IMG/VR virus record: IMGVR_UViG_3300034072_001300
Location: 1-58,411 of that record
Length of the DNA: 58,411 nt
Direction: 5' to 3' (one strand)
From: a virus
Lineage: Duplodnaviria; Caudoviricetes
The stretch's first letter is position 1. Each line of letters opens with the position of its first letter. The notes below the pieces were generated by a model. That model did no database searches. It was not told the origin of the DNA and was given only the letters and a program-made list of their open reading frames with translations. Shown here one piece after another: positions 9,585-38,566 of the stretch. Both the position numbers and the translations under genes were made by a program.

Positions 9585-10235
9585 ATGCTAAAGTTCAGAG
9601 AATGGTTAAAAGAAAAGGAATTAAATGAAATGTCACCAGTAAAAATGATGGGAAATGCACCATTTGAAAGTTTAGGAAATTTATCGAAAAGTAAAAACTC
9701 ATTAGAAGAAGACTATATTAAAATTGCGGAATTAAATGAATATGATGTTGTTTATAAGCACAAGAAATTAGAATTAATAATTGTTGTTAGAGAATTTTTT
9801 GAAGAATTACGACAAGAGATTAGATATGCTATTATAGCAGAAATGAGTTTTAAAATAGATAAAATAAAATCAACAAATAAATTAATAAACAATAAAGAAG
9901 CAGTAATTTTAAAGACTATAAATGTTAGAGAAGCAAATAGAAGACAAAATATAGCATCTAAACTATATTTACTACTTTCTGAGTATTATATTGTTATTTC
10001 AGACAGTGTTCAATATGAAGGAGCAGTAAAACTTTGGAAATCATTTATAAGAATTCCAAATATAGTTCTTTATATTTGGGATGAGCAAGAAGATAAAATT
10101 ATTTCAAAAATGACTTCTAAAACCCATGATAATGCAATTTGGAGTAATGGTGATTTAAAAGATTATTCTAAAATGAAAGTAAGATTAATTTTAATAAATG
10201 CAGATAGTAAAAATAATTCAAATAAAGATAATTAA
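9585..10235 (+). CDS. GNAT-like protein, paralog 2, with capsid-targeting-like leader
   Basis: INVREANRRQNIASKLY...SDSVQYEGAVKLW; leader MLKFREWLKEKELNE. Confidence 0.6.
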   Translation: MLKFREWLKEKELNEMSPVKMMGNAPFESLGNLSKSKNSLEEDYIKIAELNEYDVVYKHKKLELIIVVREFFEELRQEIRYAIIAEMSFKIDKIKSTNKLINNKEAVILKTINVREANRRQNIASKLYLLLSEYYIVISDSVQYEGAVKLWKSFIRIPNIVLYIWDEQEDKIISKMTSKTHDNAIWSNGDLKDYSKMKVRLILINADSKNNSNKDN

Positions 10236-10271
10236 TACTATTTAGTATATAATAAAACAAAAAGGAGATTA

Positions 10272-10853
10272 ATGTATCACACACCATATATTACAAAACA
10301 AATAGGAAGATCAACAAAATTAATTGATATTCCAACAGAAATGCTTTCACAAAGAATTATTTACTTAGGAACAGAAATAAATGATTATGTTGCAAATAGT
10401 ATTATTCAACAAATGATGTGGTTAGCAACAGTTAGTGAAGATGATATTGATTTATATATCCAAAGTCCAGGCGGTTCTGTATATGCTGGCTATAGCATAA
10501 AAGATTGTATGGATATTCTTGCTAAAAAAGGCATAAAAGTTAATACAATTGGAACTGGTTTGGTTGCAAGTATGGGTGCTTATCTATTATCGGCCGGTAC
10601 AGGTAAAAGAAAAGCAACAAAAAATTGTAGAATAATGCTTCACTCAGTATCTAGTGGTACAAGAGGAACAATCCATGATATGACTGTTGATTTTGAAGAA
10701 TCTAAATTTTTAAATGATTCTTTGATGGTTGATATTTCTAACTTCACAAAAAGTAAAAGTACAGTTGAAGATATTAGAAAAAAATGTGAAAGAGATTGTT
10801 ATATGTCTGCAGAAGAAGCAATTAAAATAGGATTAATAGATGAAAAAATTTAG
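10272..10853 (+). CDS. clpP: ClpP-like protease subunit
   Basis: RIIYLG, QSPGG, VASMG catalytic Ser, MLH, ERD. Confidence 0.92.
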   Translation: MYHTPYITKQIGRSTKLIDIPTEMLSQRIIYLGTEINDYVANSIIQQMMWLATVSEDDIDLYIQSPGGSVYAGYSIKDCMDILAKKGIKVNTIGTGLVASMGAYLLSAGTGKRKATKNCRIMLHSVSSGTRGTIHDMTVDFEESKFLNDSLMVDISNFTKSKSTVEDIRKKCERDCYMSAEEAIKIGLIDEKI

Positions 10854-11373
10854 CGAAATAATTATTGAAAACATTATTAAATTTCAAAGAGAAAATAACT
10901 CTTCAATAGTAGAAAATACATTTAGAGTTGGGACAGAATATTGGTGTAAATACTGGGAGGGTCTAAAGGAAAATAAACAAAAATATTTATCAGAATTAAA
11001 TGAGTTCGAAAAAGAAATCTTGGAAACAGATATTGGTCTTAAAGCAATATATGAAAATGAAGAAGTTCTTTTAGATTATCCTTATATAAATGAGAAATAT
11101 GAAGATGTTGAATTAAATTCACCAAAACGAGGTGGTGATAAGAAATTTTATGTTTATGTTAAAAATGATAAAGGTAATATTGTTAAAGTTCAATTTGGTG
11201 ATACTACTGGTCTAAAAGTGAAAATAAATGATAAAGAAGCAGCTAAAAGTTTTGCAGCTAGGCACCAATGCGAACTAAAAACAGATAAAACAACACCTGG
11301 CTATTGGGCTTGTAGAGTACCTAGATACGCAAAACAATTAGGATTAGAAGGCGGCGGGAATTACTGGTGGTAA
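10840..11373 (+). CDS. conserved phage protein (DUF6321-like C-terminus)
   Basis: KKFYVYVK...VQFGD...SFAARHQC...GYWACR. Confidence 0.55.
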   Translation: MKKFSEIIIENIIKFQRENNSSIVENTFRVGTEYWCKYWEGLKENKQKYLSELNEFEKEILETDIGLKAIYENEEVLLDYPYINEKYEDVELNSPKRGGDKKFYVYVKNDKGNIVKVQFGDTTGLKVKINDKEAAKSFAARHQCELKTDKTTPGYWACRVPRYAKQLGLEGGGNYWW

Positions 11374-11374
11374 T

Positions 11375-11659
11375 ATGAAATATTGTCTTACTAAAAATAA
11401 AGAAAATCCATATACGTATAAAGGACATTTAAGAATATTTTCTAAAGAATTAAATTCAAATGAACTTAAATGGCATAGAGACCGAGGTGATAGATTTATT
11501 AAAGTTATCTCTGGGGAAAATTGGTATTTGCAGTTTGATAATTGTGTACCAATTTTGCTTTTAAAGAATAAAATTTATAAAATACCTTCATCAGCTTATC
11601 ATAGATTAATAAATAATTCCAATACAGATTTAAGAATTAAAATATTAACAAAAATATAA
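11375..11659 (+). CDS. small cupin-fold protein
   Basis: WHRD...IP...YHRL metal-binding pattern. Confidence 0.55.
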   Translation: MKYCLTKNKENPYTYKGHLRIFSKELNSNELKWHRDRGDRFIKVISGENWYLQFDNCVPILLLKNKIYKIPSSAYHRLINNSNTDLRIKILTKI

Positions 11660-11662
11660 ATA
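11655..11662 (+). promoter_or_regulatory. late promoter TATAAATA
   Basis: upstream of two leader-bearing genes. Confidence 0.6.
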
Positions 11663-11681
11663 ATATAAAAAGGAAATAAAT

Positions 11682-12050
11682 ATGGGTCAATTTAGAGAAT
11701 ATTTAAACAATTTAGGTTTAGATAAAGAATTATCCGAAGCATTTAAAAATACAGCTATTCCTACAAAAATTCTTGGATTCAAAGAAGATTATATAATTAA
11801 TCAAGTTCTAAAAGATACAATTGATATTTTTGATAAGGATGGTGAATTTGTTACACTAAAACCAAAAGATTCTTTATTTAAAGAACTTGAGAAAATTATT
11901 CAAAATTCAGAAATTACAAAATACTATGATTATAAAAAAGAATTTGATCACAATAAGTACTATATTAAAAATGATTGGGATTCAGATTATGTTGTTACAA
12001 AAATTGTTGGTGATTTGCCAATAAATAAAATCAAAAAACTATTTAACTAG
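11682..12050 (+). CDS. hypothetical, putative internal head protein
   Basis: leader MGQFREYL...LSE; late promoter. Confidence 0.55.
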   Translation: MGQFREYLNNLGLDKELSEAFKNTAIPTKILGFKEDYIINQVLKDTIDIFDKDGEFVTLKPKDSLFKELEKIIQNSEITKYYDYKKEFDHNKYYIKNDWDSDYVVTKIVGDLPINKIKKLFN

Positions 12051-14818: not shown

Positions 14819-15745
14819 ATGAAAATAATAAACAACAAAAGCAGTATTTTCTACGAAAAATATAAACCTCAATGCATTGAAGATTTAATATTGCCGTCAG
14901 AATTAAAAAGTAAACTGCAAACATCAGTAAATACTCAAAAATTCCCTCACATGTTACTAGCGTCTTCGGTTGGTGGCACAGGAAAATCGGTGACCGCAAA
15001 TGCAATACTTAAAGAAATAGGTGGAGAAGCACTTTGGATAAATGCATCTTTAGAAAATGGTATTGATACATTAAGAGGAAAAATTCAAAAATTTGTAAGC
15101 ACAAGTTCGTTCGATGATAATATTAAAATTGTTGTAATGGATGAAGCAGATCATATGAGTGCGAACGCCTTAGCAGCCTTCAGAGGGTTCTTAGACGAAT
15201 TTGGTGATAATTGCGTATTTATTTTTACTTGTAACTTCAAAGAAAAAATTATAGAACCTTTATTAACAAGATTACAAATTTTTGATTTTAATAATTTCAG
15301 TAAAGAAGAAATGATTAAACCAATTTTTGAAAGACTTAAATTCATTCTTGAAAATGAAAATATTAAATATGAACCAAAAGATTTAGTTCCTGTAATCAAT
15401 ACATATTATCCAAGTATTAGAAATATGATTGGGGCGCTACAAAAATTATCTCATAATGGTGAATTTAAACTTGCAGATTTAGATGATACAAATATTTATG
15501 ATAAAGTTATGCAATTTGTAACTGTTCCGACATATCTTGATATGATTACCGAAGTTAATAAACTAAATGCACCAGAAAATATGTATACTTTTTTATATAA
15601 AAATGCGTCTAAATATTTTTCACAATCTGCATATCCAAAGGTGATTGTAACTATTGCTAAATATCAACATATGTCTAGTACAGTTAGAGATAGAAACCTC
15701 AATCTGGCAGCCTGTTTAACAGAATTGGTGGGGTTAAGACAATGA
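14819..15745 (+). CDS. 44: clamp loader large subunit (gp44-like)
   Basis: EKYKP, GGTGKS, INAS, VMDEADH, FIFTCN. Confidence 0.93.
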   Translation: MKIINNKSSIFYEKYKPQCIEDLILPSELKSKLQTSVNTQKFPHMLLASSVGGTGKSVTANAILKEIGGEALWINASLENGIDTLRGKIQKFVSTSSFDDNIKIVVMDEADHMSANALAAFRGFLDEFGDNCVFIFTCNFKEKIIEPLLTRLQIFDFNNFSKEEMIKPIFERLKFILENENIKYEPKDLVPVINTYYPSIRNMIGALQKLSHNGEFKLADLDDTNIYDKVMQFVTVPTYLDMITEVNKLNAPENMYTFLYKNASKYFSQSAYPKVIVTIAKYQHMSSTVRDRNLNLAACLTELVGLRQ

Positions 15746-17247: not shown

Positions 17248-18417
17248 ATGAATATTAATGGGCAGCTTGCTTTAGAGAATTATTTTTCTATAGAAGAAAT
17301 AATTGAATTACAAAATAATAAGGAACACGGGTTTAACTATATAAGAATAGAAAATTATATGAAAACAAATAATTTTCATTTTATGATTGATGAAATTTTA
17401 ACTAAATATAAACTAGATGTTTTTGATTATAGTAAAAGTGCTTATAACACAGAGAAAAAATACTTTTCAGATTCTGTTATTATAACAACCGCAGGAAATT
17501 CTAGAGATTCAGCATTTAATTTATATTGTAAATCGGAATATGATTTAAATGAAATTTTTAGTATTTATTTAAAACATTCAAAGGATGAAGGTGAATCAGA
17601 AGTTAAAGGATTTTTCGAAAGTATTTTCTTAAAAGGAAATGGTTTAGATAAAACAACAAAAATTCTAAAATCATCTGATTTAAAAGATATTTCAGAATTA
17701 TATTACCCATTTTTAGACACTAAAGCACTTTTTGATCAATTTTGCACGGGAAATGAAAATATTTTAGTACTTCTTGGTGCACCGGGATTAGGAAAAACAA
17801 AATTAACAAATTGTTTATTTAAGTACTTAATGTCTAATCCAGAAATGATTCCTTATGATAAATTAGAAGCTATTCCAGAACTAGAAGAACAATTCTTTAA
17901 TATTTGTTATGTTAAAAGTAATGATATTTTAACTATGGATGAATTTTGGAGAAATTTACAAAAAGATTTACCTGATTTTGTTGTTCTAGATGATTTGGAT
18001 TATATGCTTACAAAGAGAGATTCAGAAGTTCTAACATCAGAAGATGCAAAGAAAAATGCATTTTTAAATCAATTGTTATCATTTACAGATGGTGTTTCAA
18101 AAAATAAAACAAAGTTTATTATAACAACAAATCAACATTTTGATGACGTTGATGCAGCAATTCTTAGAAAAGGTAGATTATTTGATATTCTTGAATTTAG
18201 AGAATTAAATAATTCTGAAGCTTTAAATATTTGGCTAAATGAAGAATTACCTGAAGCAGAATTTCATAAATTATTCTCTGATAAAGTTTCACAAGCTGAT
18301 TTAGGTTCTGAAATTGCTAAAAGAAAAAATAAAAGAATCGAAAATACAACTTCTTCATATTTAAAAGAACCGGGTATTTCAAAAATTCAAAGAAAACCAA
18401 AAAGGATGAAATTATGA
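17248..18417 (+). CDS. AAA+ ATPase
   Basis: GAPGLGKT, VVLDDLD, ITTN, AILRKGRLFD. Confidence 0.85.
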   Translation: MNINGQLALENYFSIEEIIELQNNKEHGFNYIRIENYMKTNNFHFMIDEILTKYKLDVFDYSKSAYNTEKKYFSDSVIITTAGNSRDSAFNLYCKSEYDLNEIFSIYLKHSKDEGESEVKGFFESIFLKGNGLDKTTKILKSSDLKDISELYYPFLDTKALFDQFCTGNENILVLLGAPGLGKTKLTNCLFKYLMSNPEMIPYDKLEAIPELEEQFFNICYVKSNDILTMDEFWRNLQKDLPDFVVLDDLDYMLTKRDSEVLTSEDAKKNAFLNQLLSFTDGVSKNKTKFIITTNQHFDDVDAAILRKGRLFDILEFRELNNSEALNIWLNEELPEAEFHKLFSDKVSQADLGSEIAKRKNKRIENTTSSYLKEPGISKIQRKPKRMKL

Positions 18418-18653: not shown

Positions 18654-20942
18654 ATGAAAGAAGCAATTAGAAAAATTTCTGTTAAATTCTTTACTGAAGA
18701 AGCTATTAATGAATTCTCAAAAAAATTAATAACTACCAATCAAGAACTAACAAAAAACGTAAAAGAACTACACATAACATATAAAACAGAAGAAAAATCT
18801 ATAAATGAACTTAATTACAAGTTAATATATAGAAAACCTGTTTTTCAAAAACCAAAAGATAAAAAAGAATGGGAATATCATTGGAATGATTTAACTCCTT
18901 TTTATATAACTCCATCAAAAGCATTAGCAACTATTGAAATGTATTTCCCGGACTGTTTTACAAATTCAATTTTAGCTGAACTTTTTAACCAATCGATAAC
19001 AAATGCAACAAAATCAATAAGTTATCCGAAGGCAGAAGTTCTAGAAGTAAATAAAAAGAGATGGCTAGGCGAAAGGGGTAATCCAAAATATCCTATTTAT
19101 ATTATTTCTAAAGGCCGTTCAGAAACTTGTATCACGGCTGATCATCTTATAAAAATGGAAATACCATTCCACATTGTTATTGAAGAACAAGAGCACGAAG
19201 ATTATGCTAGATTTTATGGAGATAATGAACTTGTAACATTATTACATTTAGATTTAAAATTCAGAAAAGAATATGATACATATATTGAAGATTTTGATGA
19301 AACAAAATCAAAAGGTTCGGGTCCTTCAAGAAACTTTGTTTGGAATCATGCTAAAGAATCAGGCGCAAAATGGCATTGGATTATGGATGATAATATTATG
19401 GGATTCTATTACTACAATGATAATCAAAGAATAAAAGCAGTTGATGGGACATTATTTGCAACAGCGGAAGATTTTGTTGACAGATACGAAAATATTGGTA
19501 TTGCTGGTTTAAATTATTTTATGTTTGCAGTTCCTGGTGCAAAAGATAGACCTTATGTAGCAAACACAAAAATTTATTCTTGTTTACTTATTAGAAATGA
19601 TACAACTGTTAGATGGGCAGGTAGATATAATGAAGATGTTGATGTTTGTATAAGAGCATTAAAAGAAGGATATAGTACAATTCAGTTTGATGCTTTTTTA
19701 TCGGATAAAATGCAAACACAATCAATGGGTGGTGGAAATACCGATGCTTTCTACGCAGAAGAAGGAACATTACCAAAATCAAATATGTTAATGCATAATC
19801 ACCCTGATATTACAGAAGTTATGTGGAGATTTCAAAGATGGCACCACTTAACAAATTATGATATTTTTGATTATTACAAAGATAGAAATCTTAAAGAAAC
19901 AATTCAAGATATGATGAAACCACAAATTTTAGATAGAATATTAGATGCTGATATTATTAATGAAATTTCAAAAATTGATTTTAGTAAATTAAAAAAATGG
20001 GATATTTTAAAAGATATACCAAATTCAAAAAGAGAAAAAATATTTGAATGCTTAAAATTCTATAGATATAAAAAGAACACAGAAGAAATTATTGATATTA
20101 TTACAAGACCCCAATTAATAAGTTGTGATTTAGATTCATATCTTTTAGATAATGATATTCCTGACACTTTAGATAATAAAATAATGCTAGATATTTTTAA
20201 TCTAGGTGAACACAAAGAAGACAAATTATTTTACTGGAGAGATTTTAATGAATATTTTTCATATGTTCCAGAAGAAAGAAGAAAATTAATTATAGCAGAA
20301 TTAATTAGAAATAAATATCTTCAAAAACCTTATGAAAAATATACATATAATATTAAAGAAGTTATTCTTTCACAAGAAGATCATTTACAATTTAGAGATT
20401 CAAAACCGGTTATTCAAAATATTTTAAATATTGATGGTATTTCAGATAGACCTGAAATAGCTACAAGAATATGTTTAAGAAAAAGAGGCGAATTAAAGGT
20501 TCAGAATAAAAAGAAATTTAAAGTTAATTTAACTGCTAGAGGTTCAGTTCTTAAAAAAGAACACGAAGGTAAAACATTGATGCTGATTGGTGATGAAAAT
20601 TTTGATAGTACAGAAATTTTCGAAAGTACAACAGAACAATTCATCAAAGATTATAATATTGATGAAATTATTAACTCTGTTAATTACAAGGTTGATTTAA
20701 TGAGTGCAAATTTTGCTCTTGATAAAAAACTTAAAAATAGAGAATTTGTTCCAGATTTAATACTTCACACAAAAGGTGCTTATGCAGAAATGTATAAAAA
20801 TATGGTTCAATATACAGATTATTGTATTATATTCTCATCTGATAAATTAACAAAAGATTTAGAATTTTTGGTAGAACAATTAAAAATTAACAATAAAGAG
20901 TATATAATCAAATACAAAAACATAGTTGCAGATGAATGGTAG
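18654..20942 (+). CDS. GREB1/TET-associated-type GT-A glycosyltransferase with N-terminal partner domain and degenerate SLOG-like C-terminus
   Basis: YPIYIISKGR, GSGPSRNFVW, WHWIMDDNI, GRYNEDVD, GGNT, RFQRWHH. Confidence 0.8.
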   Translation: MKEAIRKISVKFFTEEAINEFSKKLITTNQELTKNVKELHITYKTEEKSINELNYKLIYRKPVFQKPKDKKEWEYHWNDLTPFYITPSKALATIEMYFPDCFTNSILAELFNQSITNATKSISYPKAEVLEVNKKRWLGERGNPKYPIYIISKGRSETCITADHLIKMEIPFHIVIEEQEHEDYARFYGDNELVTLLHLDLKFRKEYDTYIEDFDETKSKGSGPSRNFVWNHAKESGAKWHWIMDDNIMGFYYYNDNQRIKAVDGTLFATAEDFVDRYENIGIAGLNYFMFAVPGAKDRPYVANTKIYSCLLIRNDTTVRWAGRYNEDVDVCIRALKEGYSTIQFDAFLSDKMQTQSMGGGNTDAFYAEEGTLPKSNMLMHNHPDITEVMWRFQRWHHLTNYDIFDYYKDRNLKETIQDMMKPQILDRILDADIINEISKIDFSKLKKWDILKDIPNSKREKIFECLKFYRYKKNTEEIIDIITRPQLISCDLDSYLLDNDIPDTLDNKIMLDIFNLGEHKEDKLFYWRDFNEYFSYVPEERRKLIIAELIRNKYLQKPYEKYTYNIKEVILSQEDHLQFRDSKPVIQNILNIDGISDRPEIATRICLRKRGELKVQNKKKFKVNLTARGSVLKKEHEGKTLMLIGDENFDSTEIFESTTEQFIKDYNIDEIINSVNYKVDLMSANFALDKKLKNREFVPDLILHTKGAYAEMYKNMVQYTDYCIIFSSDKLTKDLEFLVEQLKINNKEYIIKYKNIVADEW

Positions 20943-20961
20943 AATTTTAAAATTCTACCAT
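20937..20961 (+). terminator. hairpin terminator
   Basis: atggtagaattt...aaattctaccat followed by T run. Confidence 0.55.
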
Positions 20962-20999
20962 TTTAAGACTATAAATACTTAAAAACTTAAAGGAGATTT

Positions 21000-22166
21000 A
21001 TGAAAATTACAGTAGTAGGAAGTGGTTACGTAGGAACAAGTATAGCAGTTTTACTTGCACAAAAAAATAAAGTGAGATTATTAGATGTTATTCCAGAAAA
21101 AATTGAAATGATTAATAATAAAATATCACCAATAGAAGATAAAGATATTTCTGAATATCTACAAAAAGATTTAAACTTAATTGGAACATTAGATAAAGAA
21201 TATGCATATAAAAATTCTGATTTTGTTGTTATTGCGGTACCAACTGATTATAACCCAGAAACAAATTATTTTAATACTTCACTTATTGAATCAGTTATTA
21301 AAGATGTTTTAGAATATGCACCCAAAACTGTTAATATGGTTATTAAAAGTACAATTCCCGTTGGATATGTTGAAAAAGTTAGAAAAGAATTTGGTATAAC
21401 AAATATTATGTTCAGTCCAGAATTTTTAAGAGAAGGAACTGCACTTAAAGATAATCTTTACCCAAGTAGAATTATTGTTGGTGAAAAACATACTAAAGCA
21501 ATTGAATTTGCTAATTTATTGTTAGAATGTTCTTTAAAGAAAGATGTTAAAGTTATATATACTAATCCAACCGAAGCAGAAGCAGTAAAATTATTTGCTA
21601 ATAATTATTTAGCAATGAGAGTTTCATTTTTTAATGAATTAGATTCTTATGCAGAAGTTAATGGTTTAAATACAAAGGATATTATTGATGGTGTTAGTTT
21701 GGATCCAAGAATTGGAACACATTATAATAATCCAAGTTTTGGGTATGCAGGCTACTGTTTTACAAAAGACGTTCAACAATTAAAGGCTGATATGTATAAT
21801 ACACCTAGTAATCTAATTACATCTATTCACGATTCAAATGAAAAAAGAATTAAATTTATTGCTGATAACATTATTGCTAAAAATCCAAAAACTGTTGGTA
21901 TTTACAGATTAACAATGAAAGCAAACTCAGATAACTTTAGAAATTCAGCGGTTCAAAGAATATTAACATATTTACAAGAAAAAAATATAAATGTTATTAT
22001 TTATGAACCAACTTTAAAAACAAATAAATTTAATGATATTGATGTTTTAAATACAGATGAATTTTTTGAAACTTCAGATATTATTATCGCTAATAGATTT
22101 GAACACAAATTAAGTGATTATGAAGATAAAGTTTATACGAGGGACATATTCAATACTGATTCTTAG
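21000..22166 (+). CDS. ugd: UDP-glucose 6-dehydrogenase
   Basis: GSGYVG, IKST, FSPEFLREG, AEAVKLFAN, GYAGYCFTKD, SDNFR. Confidence 0.95.
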   Translation: MKITVVGSGYVGTSIAVLLAQKNKVRLLDVIPEKIEMINNKISPIEDKDISEYLQKDLNLIGTLDKEYAYKNSDFVVIAVPTDYNPETNYFNTSLIESVIKDVLEYAPKTVNMVIKSTIPVGYVEKVRKEFGITNIMFSPEFLREGTALKDNLYPSRIIVGEKHTKAIEFANLLLECSLKKDVKVIYTNPTEAEAVKLFANNYLAMRVSFFNELDSYAEVNGLNTKDIIDGVSLDPRIGTHYNNPSFGYAGYCFTKDVQQLKADMYNTPSNLITSIHDSNEKRIKFIADNIIAKNPKTVGIYRLTMKANSDNFRNSAVQRILTYLQEKNINVIIYEPTLKTNKFNDIDVLNTDEFFETSDIIIANRFEHKLSDYEDKVYTRDIFNTDS

Positions 22167-22185
22167 TATTGAATATTTTTAAAAT

Positions 22186-22965
22186 ATGTCAAGAAAACAA
22201 AAAGATTACAAGTATCATTATACATATAGGATAACAAATATAATAGAGAAAAAATACTACTATGGTGTTCATTCATGTAATTGTTTACCCAAAGAAGATA
22301 TAGGAGTTAAATATTTTAGTTCAAGTAAAAATAAAGCATTTAAAGATGATATTAAAGAAAATCCCCAGAATTATAAGTACAAGGTTGTTAAAATATTTTC
22401 TACTAGAAAAGAAGCTTTAGAGCATGAAATATTTTTACACAATAAATTTAATGTTGGTGTTAATAAAAAATTCTATAATGATTCGAAACAGGGTTCTACA
22501 AACCGTGATACATCAGGTTTATTCCCTGCTAGGGATGTAGATGGTAATATATTTATGATCTCTAGAGATGACGAAAGATTTATATCCGGAGAATTAGTGT
22601 CAATAAATAAAGGGCGAAAATTGAATTTTTCTATAGAACATAGAGCAAATCTATCAAAAGCTCTAACAGGCAAACCAAAATCACCTGAACACCGTTTAGC
22701 AACTAGTCTCGCGACTAACACCCGAGGCAAAAATCACCCAAGATTTAAAGGTTATTATGTAACACCTATGGGTACATTTGATTCACCTGCTGCTTGTATA
22801 CCAATTATATCTTTAACACAAATGAAAATATATTGTAATGATTGTGATACTAAAATAACAGCTAAAGCTTATAATAAATCTAGGTTTTTGCAATTATTTT
22901 ATGCATATGAAGAAGTTAAAGATAGAACATATAAAGATTTAGGATTTTGGAGAGATTATATCTAA
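22186..22965 (+). CDS. GIY-YIG (Seg-like) homing endonuclease
   Basis: YTYRITN...YYYGVHS, ALEHE, FYN; NUMOD3-like repeats. Confidence 0.8.
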   Translation: MSRKQKDYKYHYTYRITNIIEKKYYYGVHSCNCLPKEDIGVKYFSSSKNKAFKDDIKENPQNYKYKVVKIFSTRKEALEHEIFLHNKFNVGVNKKFYNDSKQGSTNRDTSGLFPARDVDGNIFMISRDDERFISGELVSINKGRKLNFSIEHRANLSKALTGKPKSPEHRLATSLATNTRGKNHPRFKGYYVTPMGTFDSPAACIPIISLTQMKIYCNDCDTKITAKAYNKSRFLQLFYAYEEVKDRTYKDLGFWRDYI

Positions 22966-23017
22966 AAATTAACATCTTGTATTATATAATTCTATAAATA
23001 ATCTAAAAGGATAATAA

Positions 23018-23902
23018 ATGAAAAACAAAAAAATATTAGTTACAGGTGCAGCTGGTTTTATTGGTAGCAATCTGTGCGAAAGACTTGTAGCAGATAATGA
23101 AGTTGTTGGAATTGACAATTATTTCACTGGTTCAAAAGATAATCATATTGTTGGAGTTAAATATATTGAATCAGATGTAAAATATATTGATAAATGCTTA
23201 GAAGAAATTAAATTTAAACCGGATGTTATATATCATTTAGGGGAATATTCAAGAGTTGAACAATCTTATGAAGATGTTGGAACTGTTTTAGATTTTAATA
23301 TGGATGGTATAAAAGCAGTTTTAGAATATGTTAGAAAAAATGGATGTAAATTAATTTATGCAGGGAGTTCTACAAAATTTTCTGACATTGGGAAAGATGG
23401 GTCACCTTATGCTTGGACAAAAGCAACAAATACTGAACTTGTTCAAAATTATGGTAAATGGTATAACATAGATTACGCAATTACATATTTTTATAATGTT
23501 TATGGTCCGAGAGAAATTAAAGACGGAAAATATAGTACATTAATTGCTAAATTTTCTGAATTGTATAAAGAAAATAAAGAATTAACTATTGTTTTACCGG
23601 GTAAACAAAAAAGAAATTTTACTCATATTGATGATACTGTTGATGCTTTAGTTCTAATTGGTGAATTTGGAAAAGGTGATGAATATGGTATTGGTTCAGA
23701 TGAAGCATTTAGCATTTTAGATGTTGCTAATATGTTTTATTCAGATAAAACAAAAATCGAATTTTTACCCGAAAGACCAGGCAATAGAATGACTGCTTCG
23801 GTTGTAACAGATAAAACCAGAGCATTGGGTTGGGAACCTATAAGAAATCTAAGAGATTATATATCTAATATAAAGGAAAAATATGCAACAAATGCAAAAT
23901 AA
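23018..23902 (+). CDS. NAD-dependent NDP-sugar epimerase/dehydratase (extended SDR)
   Basis: TGAAGFIG, AGSS, YAWTK, FYNVYGP, RNFTHIDD. Confidence 0.9.
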   Translation: MKNKKILVTGAAGFIGSNLCERLVADNEVVGIDNYFTGSKDNHIVGVKYIESDVKYIDKCLEEIKFKPDVIYHLGEYSRVEQSYEDVGTVLDFNMDGIKAVLEYVRKNGCKLIYAGSSTKFSDIGKDGSPYAWTKATNTELVQNYGKWYNIDYAITYFYNVYGPREIKDGKYSTLIAKFSELYKENKELTIVLPGKQKRNFTHIDDTVDALVLIGEFGKGDEYGIGSDEAFSILDVANMFYSDKTKIEFLPERPGNRMTASVVTDKTRALGWEPIRNLRDYISNIKEKYATNAK

Positions 23903-24851
23903 TGAAAATAGAACAAATGTTGTTCTATTTTGGAGCTCAAAATACAATGGTGAAACACCCGAAGAATACAGAAATACGGAATTGGAACTTTCTGTATTTA
24001 CTGAACTAACTTTAGAATCACATAAAAAATATAATAATACAGAATTATATACTTATCAAAAAATTAAAAATATTCCAGAACATATTACTATAAAAGACGC
24101 AAATGAAATATTCCCCTTTGAATTAGCATTTGATGCATTAAAAAGAAATCATAGTATAGCTCATATTTCAGATGTTGTTAGATTAAAAAGAGCGTTGGAA
24201 ATAAATGCTGTTGTTCTTGATTTGGATGCAGTCCAAATCAACCCATTTCCTGATATTCCTTGCTTTACTTGCACAATGCCTGCTAAAACTTCAGGTGGCG
24301 TAGCTATAAAATGGGGTAAATCACACCCACCTTTTATAATTCATGATGGTTCTTGGGATGGTAAAGCATTATCTGCATTCCCAATTAAAGTACATAAATG
24401 CATTGAGACAGAAATAAATGCTTTAATTAATAGAATTATTAAATGTTTATCAGAAGAACCAATGAAAGATACAAAAGGTTGGAATTATATTATGTGGGAA
24501 TTAAAAAATATTGCTAATAATAACCCAGCGGTCAAAGTTTTTGAACCAATTAAATGTTGTCCAGTTCCCGCTTGGAAATCGGCCGGTAATTGTTATACAC
24601 TTGAATCCCCAACAAAATTTGACGGTAAATCAGAATTATTTGGTTATAAATTACCCTCAATTGATGAAATCTTTGAAAAATCATATGTTATTCAACATTT
24701 TTTTGAAAGTTCATTTAAGAATTCAGAAAAATCAAAAGAAGATTTTTTCTATAATGTAAAACCAGGTTCAGTTCTATATAAAGAGATGGAACATATATTT
24801 GGAAAGGATAATAAATATTTTAATAAATTAATTTCTACTGATGAGTGGTAG
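23883..24851 (+). CDS. glycosyltransferase, GT32/DXD-like
   Basis: AHISDVVRL...VVLDLD. Confidence 0.65.
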   Translation: MQQMQNNENRTNVVLFWSSKYNGETPEEYRNTELELSVFTELTLESHKKYNNTELYTYQKIKNIPEHITIKDANEIFPFELAFDALKRNHSIAHISDVVRLKRALEINAVVLDLDAVQINPFPDIPCFTCTMPAKTSGGVAIKWGKSHPPFIIHDGSWDGKALSAFPIKVHKCIETEINALINRIIKCLSEEPMKDTKGWNYIMWELKNIANNNPAVKVFEPIKCCPVPAWKSAGNCYTLESPTKFDGKSELFGYKLPSIDEIFEKSYVIQHFFESSFKNSEKSKEDFFYNVKPGSVLYKEMEHIFGKDNKYFNKLISTDEW

Positions 24852-24900
24852 AAATTAATACATTTTTAAATATAATTTTTAAAGAAAATAAAGGATATAA

Positions 24901-27819
24901 ATGAAATTTGAAACAGCTTGGAAAGAAGAATTTAAGTATTATGAAAGGGTTTTTGATGAAAAATTGGGAAAATCAATTAAAAGAGAAATAAAACCGCTTT
25001 TTGAATGGTATGAACCAAATTCTTTAGGTTTATATACATCTGTTATTGATGACACAATTAAATTAACTAAAAAAGAATCATATTCTTCAAAAGAAGGAAG
25101 AGATAAACACGGGTTTTTGGATCCTTTATATAAAAGCATAAGAGATAATTATTGGAATAAAGATTTATATTGCACTGATGCAAATATTTGGTATTTAGAT
25201 ATTGAAACAAGGTCAAGTGTATCATATAAAAATCCAGGTTCAGATAAAAAAATAAAAATTAAAAATAAAGAAACAAATACGGAATATGAAGAAAGTGCTA
25301 ATAAACTAAGATCTGCATTTAAAAATGGGAAGGAAGAAAATTTTCTTTATTTTAATTCATTAGAAAATAAATGGGAAGAATTAAAGGGTTCATACTATTT
25401 TCAAAGAAATATAGGATTTCCAGTACCGGAAAAATCATTAGAAGAAATTGTTCTTATGCAATTCTATGATAAGAATTCAAAAACAATGTATGTTATTGGT
25501 GATAGAGATTGGAAACATAAAGATGATTATGATTTTCAATATAATCTAAAATTTATAAATGCAGGTTCTGAATTAGAAATAATTGAAACTTATTTAAAGT
25601 TATTTAAGACATTGAACCCACTTATTATTTATGCTTGGAATGGGATGGGATTTGACTACCCTTATATTCACAATAGATTAAAAAAATTAGGAATCGACCC
25701 AAATAGATTATCAAACTATGGCAATGTTTCATATTCTGAAAGGGAATTTCAAGGAAAAATTGAATTTAGATTTAGAGCAGACGGGCACCATTATATAGAT
25801 TTAATGGAAGTTTACAAAAACTTTGTTTTTAAACCGAGAGCAAGTTATATTTTAAATGCTATCGCTGAAGTTGAAGTTAATGATAAAAAGGTAAACCATA
25901 CAGAGTACAAGCGATTTGACGACTTTTATCTAGGAAATTATGAAATACCATTAAATCCAACAGAAGAACAAAAGAATTCTAAAATTTATAATGAAGCGAT
26001 TGCCGGTAATTGGGCAGAAGTTAGAGAATTAGCATATTCCGATTTTTGTTATTATGGTGCTAAAGATACATATTTATTGGTTCTTATAGATAATAAATTA
26101 AAATTCACACAATTACAATTTATGATTGCAGAAAAAATGGGTGTTTTATTATCTGATGCTACAGCAACAGTTAAACCTTGGTCTCAATATATTGCCAATA
26201 TGTCTTATTTAGAAAATAAAGTTCTTCCTCCTAGAACTGAACATGGATCACCACATGTTGTTGGTGGTTATGTTAAAGACCCACAAAAAGGTAAACATAA
26301 ATGGGTAATGTCAGCAGACGTTAATAGTATGTATCCTTTACTATCAATGGTTGGGTTTAATATGAGCCCAGAAACATATGTTCCAATGCATAAAGTTCCT
26401 TCAGATTTAAAAGAAATTTTATTAACTTATTTTAATGACCAAGATGAAGGAAAAAGATTAGAACTAGATAAAAATATTTGGGCTAAAACAACTGAATTAC
26501 TTCAAAAATATAATTATTCGTTAGGAATAAATGGCGCAGTTTTTACAAAAGATAAACTTGGTATGATTCCAAAAATGATTATGGATATTTATACAGCAAG
26601 AAAGGTTGCTAAAAAGGAACAATTCAAATATGAACAACAAAAAGTTCTTATAAAAGAAATAATATCAAAATATAATTGTTCAAATCAAATAAATATTACT
26701 CATTCAGATGTTTTAGAATATACAAAAGAAGAATTAGAAAATTTATCATTGGACACATTAAAAGATTTAGCATTAGAAGCTGAATCAAAAGAAAATGAAT
26801 ATAATACAAGACAACTGGTTTTGAAAGTTCAGATCAACGGACTTTATGGGGCACTTGCGAATACACACTTTCCCTTATTTAATGAGCAAATGGCCGCAGC
26901 AATTACTGGAAATGGAAGATATTTTATTCAGAAAAAATCAAATTATATCGAAAGTAAATTACAGGGTATGATTCCATCACAAAAACCTTATATAATATAT
27001 AACGATACAGACGCCGCTTATTATCACATAGAACCTTTTATGAATAAATATCAAGAGCAAAATTCAAACTTAACTATTGAAGAATATACTACTTGGGCAA
27101 ATTCATTTGAAGAAAAGGTAATTCAACCAACCATTCAACATTCTGTTGATGATTTTGCGCACGAATTAAATGCTTATAATAAAGATGTTATTAAATCAGA
27201 AAGGGAGGTTATTTCAGATTCTGCATTATGGGTAGCAAAGAAAAAATATTTAGCAAGAGTAAGAGATTCAGAAGGTACTAGATATCCAGATGATAATCCA
27301 TATATGAAAGCAATGGGACTTGAAATTGCGAAATCATCGACATCAGTTTGGGCTAAAAAGAAATTAAAAGAAAGTATTAATAAAATACTTGATGGGACAG
27401 AGGAAGAATTATCGAGTTGGATTAAAGAATTAAAAATTGATTTTGTGAAAGCAGATTTAAATGATTTAGCACAAGTTGGGGCTGCATCTAATTTGGATTA
27501 TGATTTAAGTGATAAAGGAGTTCCTTTTGGTTCAAGAGCAGCAATATGTCATAATATCTATATTAAAGAGTACAACAAAGATGAAACATATTCACCAATT
27601 CAAGCAGGTGAAAAAACAAAAAGACTATTTTTAATTGAACCAAATCCGTTAAAAACAAATATAATTGCTTATAGTTCAGATAATTTTGTAAATGAAATAA
27701 AAGATTATATTGATTATGATACAAATTTTGAGAAAAGTTTCTTGAATCCACTTCAATTAATGGTTGAGTGTTTGAATTGGGACTTAAATAAGAAAACTGA
27801 ATCACTAGATGATTGGTAA
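24901..27819 (+). CDS. 43: family B DNA polymerase (gp43-like)
   Basis: DIET, WNGMGFD, DVNSMYP, KVQINGLYG, YNDTD, KKKY. Confidence 0.95.
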   Translation: MKFETAWKEEFKYYERVFDEKLGKSIKREIKPLFEWYEPNSLGLYTSVIDDTIKLTKKESYSSKEGRDKHGFLDPLYKSIRDNYWNKDLYCTDANIWYLDIETRSSVSYKNPGSDKKIKIKNKETNTEYEESANKLRSAFKNGKEENFLYFNSLENKWEELKGSYYFQRNIGFPVPEKSLEEIVLMQFYDKNSKTMYVIGDRDWKHKDDYDFQYNLKFINAGSELEIIETYLKLFKTLNPLIIYAWNGMGFDYPYIHNRLKKLGIDPNRLSNYGNVSYSEREFQGKIEFRFRADGHHYIDLMEVYKNFVFKPRASYILNAIAEVEVNDKKVNHTEYKRFDDFYLGNYEIPLNPTEEQKNSKIYNEAIAGNWAEVRELAYSDFCYYGAKDTYLLVLIDNKLKFTQLQFMIAEKMGVLLSDATATVKPWSQYIANMSYLENKVLPPRTEHGSPHVVGGYVKDPQKGKHKWVMSADVNSMYPLLSMVGFNMSPETYVPMHKVPSDLKEILLTYFNDQDEGKRLELDKNIWAKTTELLQKYNYSLGINGAVFTKDKLGMIPKMIMDIYTARKVAKKEQFKYEQQKVLIKEIISKYNCSNQINITHSDVLEYTKEELENLSLDTLKDLALEAESKENEYNTRQLVLKVQINGLYGALANTHFPLFNEQMAAAITGNGRYFIQKKSNYIESKLQGMIPSQKPYIIYNDTDAAYYHIEPFMNKYQEQNSNLTIEEYTTWANSFEEKVIQPTIQHSVDDFAHELNAYNKDVIKSEREVISDSALWVAKKKYLARVRDSEGTRYPDDNPYMKAMGLEIAKSSTSVWAKKKLKESINKILDGTEEELSSWIKELKIDFVKADLNDLAQVGAASNLDYDLSDKGVPFGSRAAICHNIYIKEYNKDETYSPIQAGEKTKRLFLIEPNPLKTNIIAYSSDNFVNEIKDYIDYDTNFEKSFLNPLQLMVECLNWDLNKKTESLDDW

Positions 27820-30685: not shown

Positions 30686-31057
30686 ATGTTTCCTACTATG
30701 TGGAGTTCTTTAGATAAGAATAAAAATGCATCAGCAGAAGACTTAAAAAAAGTTTCTGCATTTATGTTTTGCAGATGGTTGGCTGGTAATCCCAGTACAA
30801 TCAGAAAAGCAGCCGAATATAATATTTACCCTGATATTCCTGTTGAAAATATGTACTACAGCACAAAATATGAATTTGCTGGTAAAATTAGAAATATAAA
30901 ATGGGTAAAATCAGAAACAGAAGATATTGATCAAAATACAATTGATATGCTATGTACGCACTTTAAAATTTCTGTTGAAAAAGCAAAAGAATATATAAGC
31001 ATTATATCAATGGAAGAGTTGGAGTACTTAAAAGAATTATATAGGCCTAGAAAATGA
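30686..31057 (+). CDS. 62: clamp loader small subunit (gp62-like)
   Basis: FMFCRWL...IKWVK...ISVEKAKEYISII. Confidence 0.65.
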   Translation: MFPTMWSSLDKNKNASAEDLKKVSAFMFCRWLAGNPSTIRKAAEYNIYPDIPVENMYYSTKYEFAGKIRNIKWVKSETEDIDQNTIDMLCTHFKISVEKAKEYISIISMEELEYLKELYRPRK

Positions 31058-31236
31058 ATTATTCAAAAGAAGTTAGTGCATTTACGGGATCAATAATTTT
31101 GTGGGGTATGCTTTTAGGAAATATAACTTCTTGTGAACTATTAAATATTATCTTTATTTGTATTTTAGGATTTATTACTTCAATTTCATTAAATTGTGAA
31201 TCAAAAATGAATATAAATATTTTAAAAAGGAAATAA
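31054..31236 (+). CDS. small membrane protein
   Basis: two hydrophobic segments. Confidence 0.45.
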   Translation: MNYSKEVSAFTGSIILWGMLLGNITSCELLNIIFICILGFITSISLNCESKMNINILKRK

Positions 31237-31240
31237 ATGA

Positions 31241-32134
31241 ATGCTAGAAATAAATAAACCTTATGTGTATCGAATTAAAAATAAAACTACCGGTCAATTC
31301 TATTACGGCAGTAAATACTCAAAGGTTTGTTGTTATACAACATTTTGGAAAGACTACTTCACTAGTTCAGCAACAATTAGAAAATTAATTAAATTATATG
31401 GTAAAGATGATTGGGATATAAAAATATTAAAAACATATCAGACCGCTCGTGAAGCACTTTTAAATGAACAAAAATATATTAAAAGGTGTTTTAAAAGTAA
31501 ATATTCTTTAAATTTAAGATATTTTGAATACAATGGTGAATCTTTAGATGACTTAGATACTATAGAAAAAATGGTAATGACTAGAAAAATACCAGATGAA
31601 AATGGAAAAACTTCATATCTTATTGGGGGTAGAAAAACTGCTGATACTAAAAAATCAATCATTATGCCTGATGGGAGATCATTAATGCAAGTAACTGTTG
31701 ATAAAACTGCTCAAATTAGACACAATAGAGGTGATTATAAAAAATTATCTAAAGAAATGACCGGTGTAGGAAAGGGCATTTGTCCCGAAAGAAAAATCTG
31801 TGTGTATTGTGACGCTAACACGAATTTGGGAAATTATTTTAGATGGCATGGAGAAAACTGTAAAAAGAATCCAAATATAACTGAAGAACAATTAAAGAAA
31901 AGAGAACCTTGGAATAAGACTAAAGAAGATGGAACAACTAGAAAAGTCTCAGATGCAACTAGATTAAAGAATAAATTAGCTCAACAAAAACTTGTTAGTG
32001 CTTTTGATGTACAAACTTTAAAGTTTGTTAGAATAAATAAAGATATATTTAATGAATTCAAACATATTAGATATTATGGAACAACACATAGTAAAGTTAA
32101 GGAAATTTTAAAATTAAAGGAAATAAATGAATGA
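31241..32134 (+). CDS. GIY-YIG homing endonuclease
   Basis: PYVYRIKN...YYGSKY, YFTSS, ALLNE; CxxC...RWHGENC. Confidence 0.8.
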   Translation: MLEINKPYVYRIKNKTTGQFYYGSKYSKVCCYTTFWKDYFTSSATIRKLIKLYGKDDWDIKILKTYQTAREALLNEQKYIKRCFKSKYSLNLRYFEYNGESLDDLDTIEKMVMTRKIPDENGKTSYLIGGRKTADTKKSIIMPDGRSLMQVTVDKTAQIRHNRGDYKKLSKEMTGVGKGICPERKICVYCDANTNLGNYFRWHGENCKKNPNITEEQLKKREPWNKTKEDGTTRKVSDATRLKNKLAQQKLVSAFDVQTLKFVRINKDIFNEFKHIRYYGTTHSKVKEILKLKEINE

Positions 32135-37120: not shown

Positions 37121-38566
37121 ATGCAAAATATTAAAAATTTTGAAGAAAATAGAGTTATGCTAAGTGATTCTTACAAGTACAGTCACTATTTACAATATCC
37201 AAAAAGAACTGTAAATATGTATGATTATGCTGAAGCACGAAGCTTAAAAGAATATGATAAAACATTGTTCTTTGGTTTACAAATGATGTGGAAAAAGTAT
37301 TTTACTAAAAAAATAACAATTAAAGAAGTTGATGAAGCATCTATGTATGCTAAAGCTCACGGAATTCCGTTTAATTTAAAGGGTTGGAAAAGAATTGTTA
37401 GAAAGTACAAAGGTAGATTACCTGTTACTATTAAAGCTGTTCCAGAGGGAACTGTTATTCCGAATAAAATGGTTTTATTCACGGTTGAATTAACAATAAA
37501 TGATAAAGAAATTTTTTGGTTACCTTCTTGGTTAGAAACATTCTTAATGAAAGTTTGGTATACTTGTAATGTTGCCACAAGAAGTTATTTTGTTAAAGAA
37601 ATGTTATTAGAACAAGGAAAATTAACATCTGATAATTCATTTGTTGATTTCCAATTTCATAATTTTGGGGATAGAGGTTCAAGTTCGGTAGAATCTGCTG
37701 CTTTTGGTGGAGTTGCTCACTTAGCTTGTTTCAAAGGGACAGATAATTTTAATTGTTTAAGATATGCTCATTTACTTATGAATGAACCTATTGAAAATAT
37801 TGCATATAGTATCGCTGCATCAGAACATAGCTCAACAACAGCTTGGGCAAAAGATGGTGAATTTGATATGGTTATGAACCATTTAGAAAACAATAAAGGT
37901 AACCCTTTAATGGCTTCAGTTGCTGATTCATATGATGTATTTAATTTTACGGATAAAGTAACATCGGGTGAATTTAAAAGAAAAATTGAATCTGATGAAT
38001 ATCCAAAATTCATTGAAAGACCAGATAGTGGTTATGCACCTGATATTATTTCGGAGATGTTAAATATTCATGAGAAAAATGAAGTGAAATTCACTGAAAA
38101 TTCAAAAGGTTATAAAACATTTGATAAGTATGGCTTTATTTGGGGTGATGGTATTAAAATGAATACTATGGTTGATATTTTGACTACTCTTAGATTAAGA
38201 ATGTATTCAACTGAAAATCAAGCATTTGGATCAGGCGGTTGGTTAATGCAACAACACGATAGAGATACTTTAGGTTTTGCTATTAAATGCAGTAATATTA
38301 CTTTAGAAGATGGTTCAGAAATTGAAGTTTATAAAGATCCAATCACAGATCCGGGTAAAAAATCTAAAAAAGGTAAAGTTACAACATATTTTAATAGAGC
38401 AACAGATGAATTCTTTGTGGATATTATTGGTAATGAATCAATTGATTGTCCAGAAGTTCTTGAAACAGTTATTGAAAATGGAATTCTTGTAAAAGAAGTT
38501 ACATTATCTGAAGTTAGAAATAGAGTTGATAAACAATTGGCCGGTATTAAATTTGGGAATTTATAA
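37121..38566 (+). CDS. nadV: nicotinamide phosphoribosyltransferase (NAMPT)
   Basis: DSYKYSH, HNFGDRG, GTDN, ASEHS, DSYD, RPDSG, GDG, KSKKG. Confidence 0.95.
   Translation: MQNIKNFEENRVMLSDSYKYSHYLQYPKRTVNMYDYAEARSLKEYDKTLFFGLQMMWKKYFTKKITIKEVDEASMYAKAHGIPFNLKGWKRIVRKYKGRLPVTIKAVPEGTVIPNKMVLFTVELTINDKEIFWLPSWLETFLMKVWYTCNVATRSYFVKEMLLEQGKLTSDNSFVDFQFHNFGDRGSSSVESAAFGGVAHLACFKGTDNFNCLRYAHLLMNEPIENIAYSIAASEHSSTTAWAKDGEFDMVMNHLENNKGNPLMASVADSYDVFNFTDKVTSGEFKRKIESDEYPKFIERPDSGYAPDIISEMLNIHEKNEVKFTENSKGYKTFDKYGFIWGDGIKMNTMVDILTTLRLRMYSTENQAFGSGGWLMQQHDRDTLGFAIKCSNITLEDGSEIEVYKDPITDPGKKSKKGKVTTYFNRATDEFFVDIIGNESIDCPEVLETVIENGILVKEVTLSEVRNRVDKQLAGIKFGNL

Follow-up and report, generated by a model that had tools for sequence, protein, structure and literature searches.

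A C-terminal D-[DE]-W tail shared by two putative DNA glycosyltransferases and the DNA polymerase of a T4-like phage, a candidate sliding-clamp-binding motif

Why should two glycosyltransferases of a T4-like phage end in the same residues as the DNA polymerase that is encoded beside them? This question is raised by IMG/VR record IMGVR_UViG_3300034072_001300, a complete viral contig of 58,411 bases (~25% G+C, estimated genome completeness of 30%), which was analysed over its full length and is referred to here as the window. Three of its genes, all located on the plus strand and within 9.2 kb of each other, encode a long TAGT-family DNA glycosyltransferase (18654..20942, 762 amino acids, abbreviated aa below), a GT-A fold (DxD) glycosyltransferase (23883..24851, 322 aa), positioned directly upstream of the polymerase gene, and a family-B DNA polymerase of the T4 gp43 type (24901..27819, 972 aa; Pfam DNA_pol_B, exo1 and exo2). 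Their deduced C-termini read KYKNIVADEW, FNKLISTDEW and KKTESLDDW, respectively, with the terminal D-E-W codons at 20931..20939 (stop 20940-20942) and 24840..24848 (stop 24849-24851) and the D-D-W codons of the polymerase at 27808..27816. The first-pass annotation of this DNA had pointed to these endings (IVADEW, ISTDEW and ESLDDW), which were borne out by the translated open reading frames (ORFs), and had proposed that the transferases dock on the sliding clamp and glycosylate nascent DNA. In the analysis reported here, a probability of roughly 0.7 is assigned to D-[DE]-W being a clade-specific sliding-clamp-binding motif that would tether DNA-modifying enzymes.

The occurrence of this ending in the window is far beyond chance. 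When 100 window ORFs of 50 aa or more were chosen greedily and without overlap, three were found to end in D[DE]W against an expectation of 0.034, calculated from the frequency of the D[DE]W tripeptide anywhere in the same proteins (binomial P = 6.4e-6). Six such tripeptides are present in the entire set, three of which represent the C-termini in question. No other window ORF ends in D-[ED]-W, as had been claimed, and the one other ORF ending in W (10840-11373, GGGNYWW) does so without the acidic pair. The residues preceding D[DE]W are wholly different among the three proteins. A common DNA signal as the basis of the shared ending was considered and set aside, as homologues change codons yet keep the W, and the tailed genes do not overlap with the next gene.

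For the polymerase, the tail can be compared with a characterised peptide. Residues 889-EKASLDFLFG-898 of T4 gp43 bind the clamp gp45 (PMC6212786), the C-terminal peptide of the RB69 polymerase binds the clamp in a crystal structure (PMC6212786, PMC2988020), and the C-termini of T4 gp43, gp55 and gp33 are highly similar and interchangeable, that of gp55 representing the clamp-binding epitope (PMC2988020), all according to the available excerpts of these papers. The statement in the first-pass annotation that gp43 binds gp45 through a C-terminal peptide shared with gp55 and gp33 agrees with these sources. The last 75 residues of the polymerases of the window, phages phiKT1024, CP220, phiAS5 and Aeh1 and ten metagenomic sequences were aligned, which placed ESLDDW in the same columns as ASLMDLFDF (phiAS5), ASLSDLFGDM (Aeh1), ASLDMLF, ATLDDFF and STLEDFFS. 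As judged from this alignment, the polymerase tail is positionally homologous to the clamp-binding peptide of T4 and RB69. The C-terminal third of the protein retrieved 53 polymerase clusters, about 25 of which end in [DE]-W (SLDDW, PLDDW, SLEDW, DLDEW and TIDEW, among others). This ending is present in nearly all of the closest ones (~38-99% identity), one intermediate ends in SLEDFW, and more distant ones end in TLEDFF[GAS], TLDDFF or ASLDMLF. The polymerase of Campylobacter phage CP220 ends in ETLEEW; its gene (L093, record 100966-104404) is located directly after a QueC-like 7-deazaguanine gene. From the column alignment with T4-type tails and this survey of cluster ends, the W ending is deduced to be a lineage-specific version of the known clamp-binding motif.

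A match to PF20691 (E 2.1e-39; 136 bits, with a cut-off of 27.5) spans residues 146-360 of the long TAGT protein and profile positions 1-205 of 205. In the AlphaFold2 model of this protein (mean confidence, pLDDT, of 74), an N-terminal alpha/beta domain is predicted to be followed by the TAGT catalytic domain (146-400), a helical middle part and a Rossmann-like C-terminal domain of five strands (641-754), and the chain ends in a disordered tail, with residues 758-762 scoring under 50. The C-terminal domain weakly resembles SLOG/YspA (YAcAr matches in three homologues, E 0.06-0.15) and matches the SLOG protein of phiKT1024, itself ending in DQEEW, with a pairwise E of 5e-5. The docking proposal presupposes that the tail is conserved, and for this protein conservation was indeed observed: among 13 aligned homologue clusters, which are 42-100% identical in the C-terminal half, the terminal W (W762) is kept in 12, 10 of which end in [DE]W and two in LDDWD, while one is without W. 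The individual ends are ADEW, EDEW, EEEW, QEDW, AEDW (twice), SLDDW, LTDW, DLEW, NDEW and LDDWD (twice). The ~10 residues in front of the tail vary in sequence and length to the extent that they are unalignable, and the W is retained behind this drifting linker down to 42% identity. Matches of the window protein to cultured phages were confined to the catalytic domain. The TAGT of phiKT1024 (Pfam E 9e-29), which ends in QPNDDW, is too distant from the window protein for tblastn to connect them, and the last ~10 residues are missing from its relatives in Lactobacillus, E. coli and haloarchaeal viruses. The TAGT genes of all these viruses follow directly on a ParB-like gene and precede that of the small terminase.

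The 322 aa protein has no Pfam match even at E <= 1, nor any PHROG or NCBIfam match, and no homologue among cultured phages. Its AlphaFold2 model (pLDDT 93.5) carries an appended helix at 311-317, followed by final residues of low confidence. Foldseek comparison with the PDB returned 16 matches at E <= 0.001 to GT-A retaining glycosyltransferases (best 1.1e-5, probability 1.0, TM scores of only 0.3-0.4), including PaTox, SetA, YeGT, alpha-1,3-galactosyltransferase, glycogenin and Och1. The DxD residues D113 and D115 are invariant in 64 homologues. With the PF20691 match of the one protein and the GT-A model and DxD motif of the other, the initial naming of both tailed neighbours as glycosyltransferases holds.

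Among 120 homologues of the GT-A protein, three match PF04488 and five are fused to a ParB-type domain. Eight end in [DEN][DE]W, all of which are among the 14 closest, and one of these reads TTESLEEW, close to a polymerase tail. Some 85 of the remaining homologues end right after the last core helix, including all eight from small-phage contigs (L002-L009), where the protein terminates ~15 residues earlier; 33 of 34 further IMG/VR GT-A loci likewise end after the core, and the DEW tail was present in the remaining one (L001). In a tree built without the last 25 residues, all W-tail rows fell into one well-supported clade of 18, the other members of which carry aromatic extensions (NTLF, IDDLF, FDSFFI, WNFLE and LYQMWSQ), with the FDEW and IDDLF rows as sisters at 99% support. 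Because relatives of the GT-A protein and of the phiKT1024 TAGT end before the tail, and because both models are of low confidence at the last residues, the tail is judged to be an add-on to the transferase bodies. Homologues P0074, P0077, P0085, P0091 and P0094 (~510-555 aa) carry a fused C-terminal ParB-type domain (PF02195) or another extension, and P0017-P0020 possess a different C-terminal half. A family-B polymerase was found in none of five contigs with GT-A homologues (G001-G005), and G001 is without an obvious tail partner for LYQMWSQ.

The tail extends to further proteins in related phages. In phiKT1024, four of 316 ORFs end in D[DE]W (0.07 expected) and six in [DE][DE]W (0.11 expected, P 2e-9): the polymerase (ESLDDW, as in the window), the TAGT (18860-19861), a D12-class Dam methylase (30872-31678; LPNDEW, Pfam E 5e-29), a 377 aa protein (SDLDDW), the SLOG protein and an 86 aa protein encoded beside the sigma factor (KQEEW). 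The RNase H of this phage ends in ADDFGW and a ParB-like protein in NNKSW. For the 377 aa protein, no Pfam, PHROG or PDB match was obtained, nor any similarity to the GT4 protein described next. One end of a 160-kb metagenome contig (L086) encodes a GT4 transferase (PF13439, E 3e-7) ending in QSLDW, with an epimerase, a UDP-glucose dehydrogenase and a long TAGT ending in STLDDWD as neighbours. Ten IMG/VR contigs bear the clamp gene of this clade, and nine of these contain a complete RNase H gene; seven of the nine products end in [DE]LTA[DE]DF[GD]W, that of L030 ends in the same motif plus one extra D, and that of L035 in NDSW. In this lineage, the ending of the polymerase is thus found on proteins of three unrelated transferase folds as well as on a methylase and a flap nuclease.

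If the tail addresses the replisome, its form may be expected to change along with that of the replisome, and a co-variation of this kind, proposed as a check in the first-pass annotation, was observed. The GT-A and GT4 tails are of the W type in the lineage with [DE]W polymerases and of the F type (TLEKFFE, LHLENFMI, SLEDFFS) where the polymerase has a TLEDFF[GAS] ending. When the GT4 protein was used in an exhaustive search, 135 relatives were retrieved, with ends such as TSLEQFF, TGLEGFFDD, ASLEDFFS, SLEGFFE, VLDDFFE and DLTEFFR; one close relative ends in KEDLW, and two GT4 proteins have no homologue among cultured phages. A strict polymerase-like end pattern was detected in 36 of 117 full-length GT4 proteins and in 25 of 53 polymerases, against a background of 9 of 528 ORFs of four phage sequences, true positives included. 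Pairs on the same contig follow this trend. In four IMG/VR records (two of them near-identical), the polymerase ends in QTLEDFFG or SSLEDFFG, and the GT4 protein encoded within a few kb ends in LHLENFMI or LHLDQFMI. Contig G2, a T4-like fragment with gp23, gp46/47, UvsW and gp55, encodes a GT-A homologue ending in RPTLEKFFE and a gp55 late sigma factor ending in APLDKFMAE. These counts ignore phylogeny and draw on a modest number of independent lineages. Since GT-A and GT4 tails are of the W or F type as is the polymerase or gp55, the tail is seen to follow the replisome's own version of the motif. Of the gp55 and ligase tails that the first-pass annotation proposed to check, that of the G2 gp55 resembles the GT-A tail of that contig; the sigma factor and ligase of phiKT1024 are without the tail.

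On the same G2 contig (L080-L082), a nucleotide-sugar epimerase (10405-11163, minus strand) ends in KRVDDLF and a 120 aa ORF (11608-11973, minus strand) in TLKDLFK; both genes adjoin gp46/47, gp55 and the GT-A/TAGT pair, and clamp-type tails may by resemblance extend to sugar-nucleotide enzymes. In G006 (152 kb), the polymerase ends in NLLGFF, the TAGT in NFKG and an unassigned 284 aa neighbour in PLAKFLMD, a likeness that is suggestive only.

A short, shared ending of this nature could also act without any docking on DNA-bound machinery, setting the times at which early proteins are abundant by serving as a C-terminal degron or as a cap for stability or folding. The marked shortness of the tail, its predicted disorder and its presence on small phiKT1024 proteins of unknown role would suit such a signal. 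However, it would leave unexplained why DNA enzymes (polymerase, RNase H, Dam and three DNA-cassette transferases) make up most of the carriers and why the W type switches to the F type together with the polymerase or gp55 tail; a signal of this kind is accordingly considered very unlikely.

The receptor best matching a peptide in this position is the clamp, and the window encodes both subunits of a clamp loader on the plus strand: a gp44-like large subunit (14819..15745, 308 aa; phrog_168, E 1e-74; 67% identical to the phiKT1024 clamp loader) and a gp62-like small subunit (30686..31057, 123 aa; phrog_225, E 3.4e-14; 44% identical to a phiKT1024 'clamp loader subunit'). The presence of a clamp-loader gene suggests that the phage uses a gp45-type clamp, the gene of which would lie outside the window. 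Related phages do encode a clamp (phrog_223, E 2.4e-20), in phiKT1024 at record positions 10245-10949. Comparison of the window ORFs with phiKT1024 by blastp yielded no homologue of the single-stranded-DNA-binding protein (SSB), RNase H, gp55 or ligase, and a gp33 gene is likewise missing from the window. Co-folding of a clamp trimer with GT-A residues 283-322 gave a score of 0.03 against a mark of 0.32, which counts neither for nor against binding, the clamp being taken from another contig of the clade (alignment of nine IMG/VR clamps, first row L032) and the partner being supplied without an alignment.

The tail might instead dock on a different hub of the replisome, such as the gp32-type SSB, the primase-helicase or the AAA+ ATPase encoded at 17248-18417. 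A second shared tail exists in this clade, as the gp32-type SSB ends in SLD[DS]LL.GL[VIL] in all loci read (phiKT1024 L011 11096-12025; IMG/VR L028-L037) and the phiKT1024 primase-helicase (L010, 33987-35543) in DLDDLYAELGL; these tails recall the matching acidic tails of T7 gp2.5 and gp4. The shared form LD[DS]L[LY]..GL indicates that several contacts are made through tails, the AAA+ and polymerase genes are syntenic, and acidic tails with a terminal aromatic residue serve contacts other than with the clamp in bacterial SSB, T7 gp2.5 and T7 gp4. In known SSB systems, however, the motif is located on the hub and not on its clients. Furthermore, the polymerase tail occupies the alignment columns of the gp45-binding peptide of T4 and RB69 (PMC6212786, in excerpt), and the tail of the G2 transferase resembles that of gp55, which binds the clamp in T4 (PMC2988020, in excerpt). 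Docking on one of these other hubs is for these reasons viewed as unlikely.

Several observations weigh against clamp binding and have to be set beside the evidence above. The clamp gene was not found in the 58-kb window (Pfam DNA_PPF; blastp against phiKT1024), the clamp used for comparison originates from other contigs of the clade, and its profile gave no match at E <= 0.01 to PDB chains. The tails are more acidic and less hydrophobic than LDFLF of T4, and those of the transferases are less hydrophobic than any characterised clamp peptide. The hydrophobic residues of the window tails are the terminal W plus I, V or L three to six residues upstream, compared with L, F, L and F in T4, and VADEW and STDEW of the transferases are without the leucine of S-L-D-D-W in the polymerase. 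In phiKT1024, the gp55-like sigma factor (276 aa) and the ligase do not carry the tail, and 15 ORFs end in W, including those for the portal and tail-tube proteins, so that not every W end represents a docking tail. In CP220, [DE][DE]W followed by a stop occurs once, at the polymerase only. TAGT homologues of Aeh1 and phiAS5 end in DEEE or DEDQ, unlike the polymerases of these phages, the TAGTs of Tenacibaculum phage PTm1 and Vibrio phage Kuja are also without the tails of their polymerases, and the TAGT genes of contigs G2 and G006 end in NFQG or NFKG, unlike the replisome tails there. A 2026 study of T4 reports, in the excerpts available, that the ratio of alpha to beta glucosylation is determined mainly by expression level and not by clamp binding (PMC13216743). 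Finally, the W-tail GT-A rows represent one clade and the six Vibrio phages are near-identical, so that independent events are fewer than sequences.

This last point, together with the proximity of the three window genes, would also suit a purely historical resemblance without function, in which 3' ends were copied between neighbours by recombination or were inherited by common descent within the lineage. Such an origin is regarded as very unlikely, as the residues before D[DE]W differ completely among the window proteins, the W of the long TAGT protein persists at 42% identity despite a drifting linker, the tail is present on unrelated folds of separate genomes, and the excess of tails is far above expectation in two genomes.

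The proposed docking was originally put forward as the reason to assign DNA as the substrate, and this assignment is supported apart from the tail. TAGT is the family of the T2/T6 enzyme that glucosylates glucosyl-hydroxymethylcytosine DNA by adding a second glucose (PMC13216743; also PMC13390438; both in excerpt), and phage gene clusters for DNA base modification are known to include ParB partners (PMC13229309). From the TAGT membership of ORF 18654, and from the GT-A fold, the DxD motif and the ParB-type fusions in five of 120 homologues for ORF 23883, both window proteins are best read as putative DNA glycosyltransferases, independently of the tail. PF11440, the family of T4 alpha-glucosyltransferase, was not listed in the Pfam scans of either protein.

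Combining these elements, we infer the clamp as receptor, the coupling of modification to replication, and the base, the sugar and the order of the two transferases. The clamp loader would load a trimeric clamp of the gp45 type, the gene of which would be located in another part of the genome, and one of the three subunits would hold the polymerase through ESLDDW. Free sites on this clamp, or clamps left on the lagging strand, would hold the TAGT protein (ADEW) and the GT-A protein (TDEW), to which the polymerase's tail has presumably been added as a short, disordered stretch. A third glycosyltransferase family, the Dam methylase, RNase H and other proteins would ride clamps as well in related phages. 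UDP-uronic acid or a sugar derived from it would be supplied by the two enzymes encoded between the transferase genes, the dehydrogenase and the SDR enzyme, and the transferases would place sugars on a hydroxylated or hydroxymethylated pyrimidine of newly made duplex DNA, perhaps adding one each by analogy with T2/T6.

The proposed motif shares several properties with the clamp motif of the T4 family, which is found at the C-termini of gp43, gp55 and gp33 and in an internal loop of T4 ligase: a position at the extreme C-terminus, a variable linker and a combination of acidic with hydrophobic or aromatic residues (PMC6212786, PMC2988020 and PMC7892883, in excerpt), as well as several clients per genome that share the motif. 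It differs in its core, D-[DE]-W as compared with LDFLF or LFDMFDF, with a single terminal W and one or no upstream aliphatic residue, and in its clients, which here are DNA-modifying enzymes and RNase H, and it is absent from the gp55-like sigma factor of phiKT1024. Binding to gp45 has been described for T4 alpha-glucosyltransferase (Sommer 2004, cited in PMC13216743, where the pull-down was repeated), which thus represents a phage DNA glycosyltransferase on the sliding clamp, for which action with replication has been proposed (PMC13216743); this enzyme belongs to a different family (PF11440), and in the available excerpts of that paper no clamp-binding peptide is named on it. The TAGT of T2/T6 (beta-glucosyl-HMC-alpha-glucosyltransferase, PF20691) has its full catalytic domain in common with ORF 18654, but the window protein, at 762 aa, has ~145 extra N-terminal and 360 extra C-terminal residues, plus the tail. 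T-even-like relatives of TAGT in Aeromonas phages are 400 aa long and have an acidic end without an aromatic residue.

A further parallel is provided by the PIP-box clients of eukaryotic and archaeal PCNA (FEN1, DNA ligase and DNA methyltransferase), as a flap nuclease homologue (RNase H) and a methyltransferase here share the polymerase's peptide. Maintenance DNA methyltransferase is a PCNA client with a PIP box, and we know of no PCNA counterpart for glycosyltransferases. The motif described here nevertheless has another sequence, is strictly terminal and is present on glycosyltransferases. The toolbelt idea for PCNA is discussed in the available part of PMC6212786. In ParB-activated phage base-modification enzymes (PMC13229309), DNA-modifying enzymes are likewise directed by a DNA-associated partner, and ParB genes or domains accompany both transferase families; the address here differs in being a terminal peptide shared with the polymerase, and the window is without a ParB gene.

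C-terminal clamp peptides shared by several clients, and the binding of T4 alpha-glucosyltransferase to gp45, are thus already known. In the open literature searched, no clamp-binding motif on phage glycosyltransferases is described beyond the papers cited. The D-[DE]-W version of the motif, the tail on TAGT, GT-A and GT4 transferases and on a Dam methylase, and the tracking of the polymerase tail type by transferase tails across T4-like lineages appear new within that literature.

Phage DNA glycosylation defeats restriction and CRISPR, and of the pacing of transferases with the fork no more than an outline is known, for T4 alpha-glucosyltransferase only. If clamp binding by D-[DE]-W is correct, a new version of the motif would be present in phiKT1024-like Vibrio phages, on the polymerase of Campylobacter Eucampyvirinae and in a large, uncultured marine low-GC clade. 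DNA would then be assigned as the substrate of orphan glycosyltransferases from sequence alone, methylation and glycosylation would be coupled to the replisome in these phages, comparable to maintenance methylation on PCNA, and simple bench tests would be possible in a cultured phage. Should the tail not bind the clamp, its conservation on many DNA enzymes would still point to an unrecognised replisome contact.

A broader possibility, which is put forward tentatively and is rated at somewhat less than even odds, is that C-terminal clamp tails serve across T4-like phages as a portable address label that changes with the clamp-polymerase pair of each lineage, and that whole DNA-hypermodification pathways have been built onto the clamp. 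Such a label would reveal the full set of clamp clients, comprising at least three unrelated glycosyltransferase folds, the Dam methylase, a SLOG module and possibly the G2 epimerase (VDDLF). Modification would then take place on new DNA no more than a few turns from the fork, and DNA-directed transferases could be picked by sequence only among the orphan glycosyltransferases of marine phages.

The window itself is assigned, from its sequence, to a T4-like myovirus. The polymerase shares 53-59% identity with those of Vibrio phages phiKT1024, Va1, phiTY18 and pv27, and ~37% with those of Campylobacter phages. The gene content includes a large terminase, an endolysin, the AAA+ ATPase and both clamp-loader subunits, along with metabolic genes for thymidylate synthase, dihydrofolate reductase, a deoxynucleoside monophosphate (dNMP) kinase and NAD salvage. 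The gene order corresponds to that of phiKT1024 except for a cassette of five genes between the AAA+ ATPase gene, which is located just upstream of it, and the polymerase gene; in phiKT1024 the latter two genes are adjacent.

Between the two transferase genes, this cassette contains three tail-less or unassigned ORFs on the plus strand. The first (21000..22166, 388 aa, tail-less) encodes a UDP-glucose/nucleotide-sugar 6-dehydrogenase with the N, central and C domains of Pfam UDPG_MGDP_dh; it scores 308 bits for the NCBIfam NDP-sugDHase subfamily, above the cut-off, and 499 bits for the UDP-glucose 6-dehydrogenase equivalog, below the cut-off of 757, and is the likely supplier of UDP-uronic acid. 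The second (22186..22965, 259 aa) is 59% identical over 114 aa to a phiKT1024 ORF, has zero family matches in Pfam and NCBIfam searches and, judged by eye, is possibly a mobile gene of the homing-endonuclease type. The third (23018..23902, 294 aa, tail-less) encodes an NAD-dependent sugar epimerase/dehydratase of the extended SDR type (Pfam Epimerase, E 3.8e-41), for which every NCBIfam equivalog score was under its cut-off. No base-hydroxylating or base-hydroxymethylating gene was found in the window, which covers 30% of the genome, and neither a ParB nor a Tet/JBP (Tet_JBP) gene is present in it. The thymidylate synthase homologue was considered as the maker of a modified base and was rejected, as it represents a true ThyA (NCBIfam 490 bits, cut-off 427).

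In a 94-96% identical relative (L001/L015, 1378-5285), the coding sequence of the polymerase is split into two ORFs, of 596 and 343 aa, which are separated by a third of 257 aa, and in the phiKT1024 group the polymerase is also split, with homing-endonuclease annotations nearby; the window polymerase is a single frame of 972 aa. Two adjacent window ORFs on the minus strand (400-2886 and 2862-3602) both match large-terminase families, and in the first of these (828 aa) the N- and C-terminal terminase matches are ~300 unmatched residues apart. A split or duplicated gene may account for this arrangement, as may the insertion of an intein or a mobile element.

Small ORFs at window positions 9585, 12061, 36487 and 40209 (also 11682), as well as in L028-L030, have a near-identical N-terminus, M-x-x-F-[RK]-[ED]-W-[LM]-x-E-K-E, and two of them match phrog_15502, which suggests a paralogous family scattered in the early region. 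The NAD-salvage genes encode a nicotinamide phosphoribosyltransferase and a bifunctional nicotinamide mononucleotide (NMN) adenylyltransferase/Nudix protein (37121-38566 and 39123-40181).

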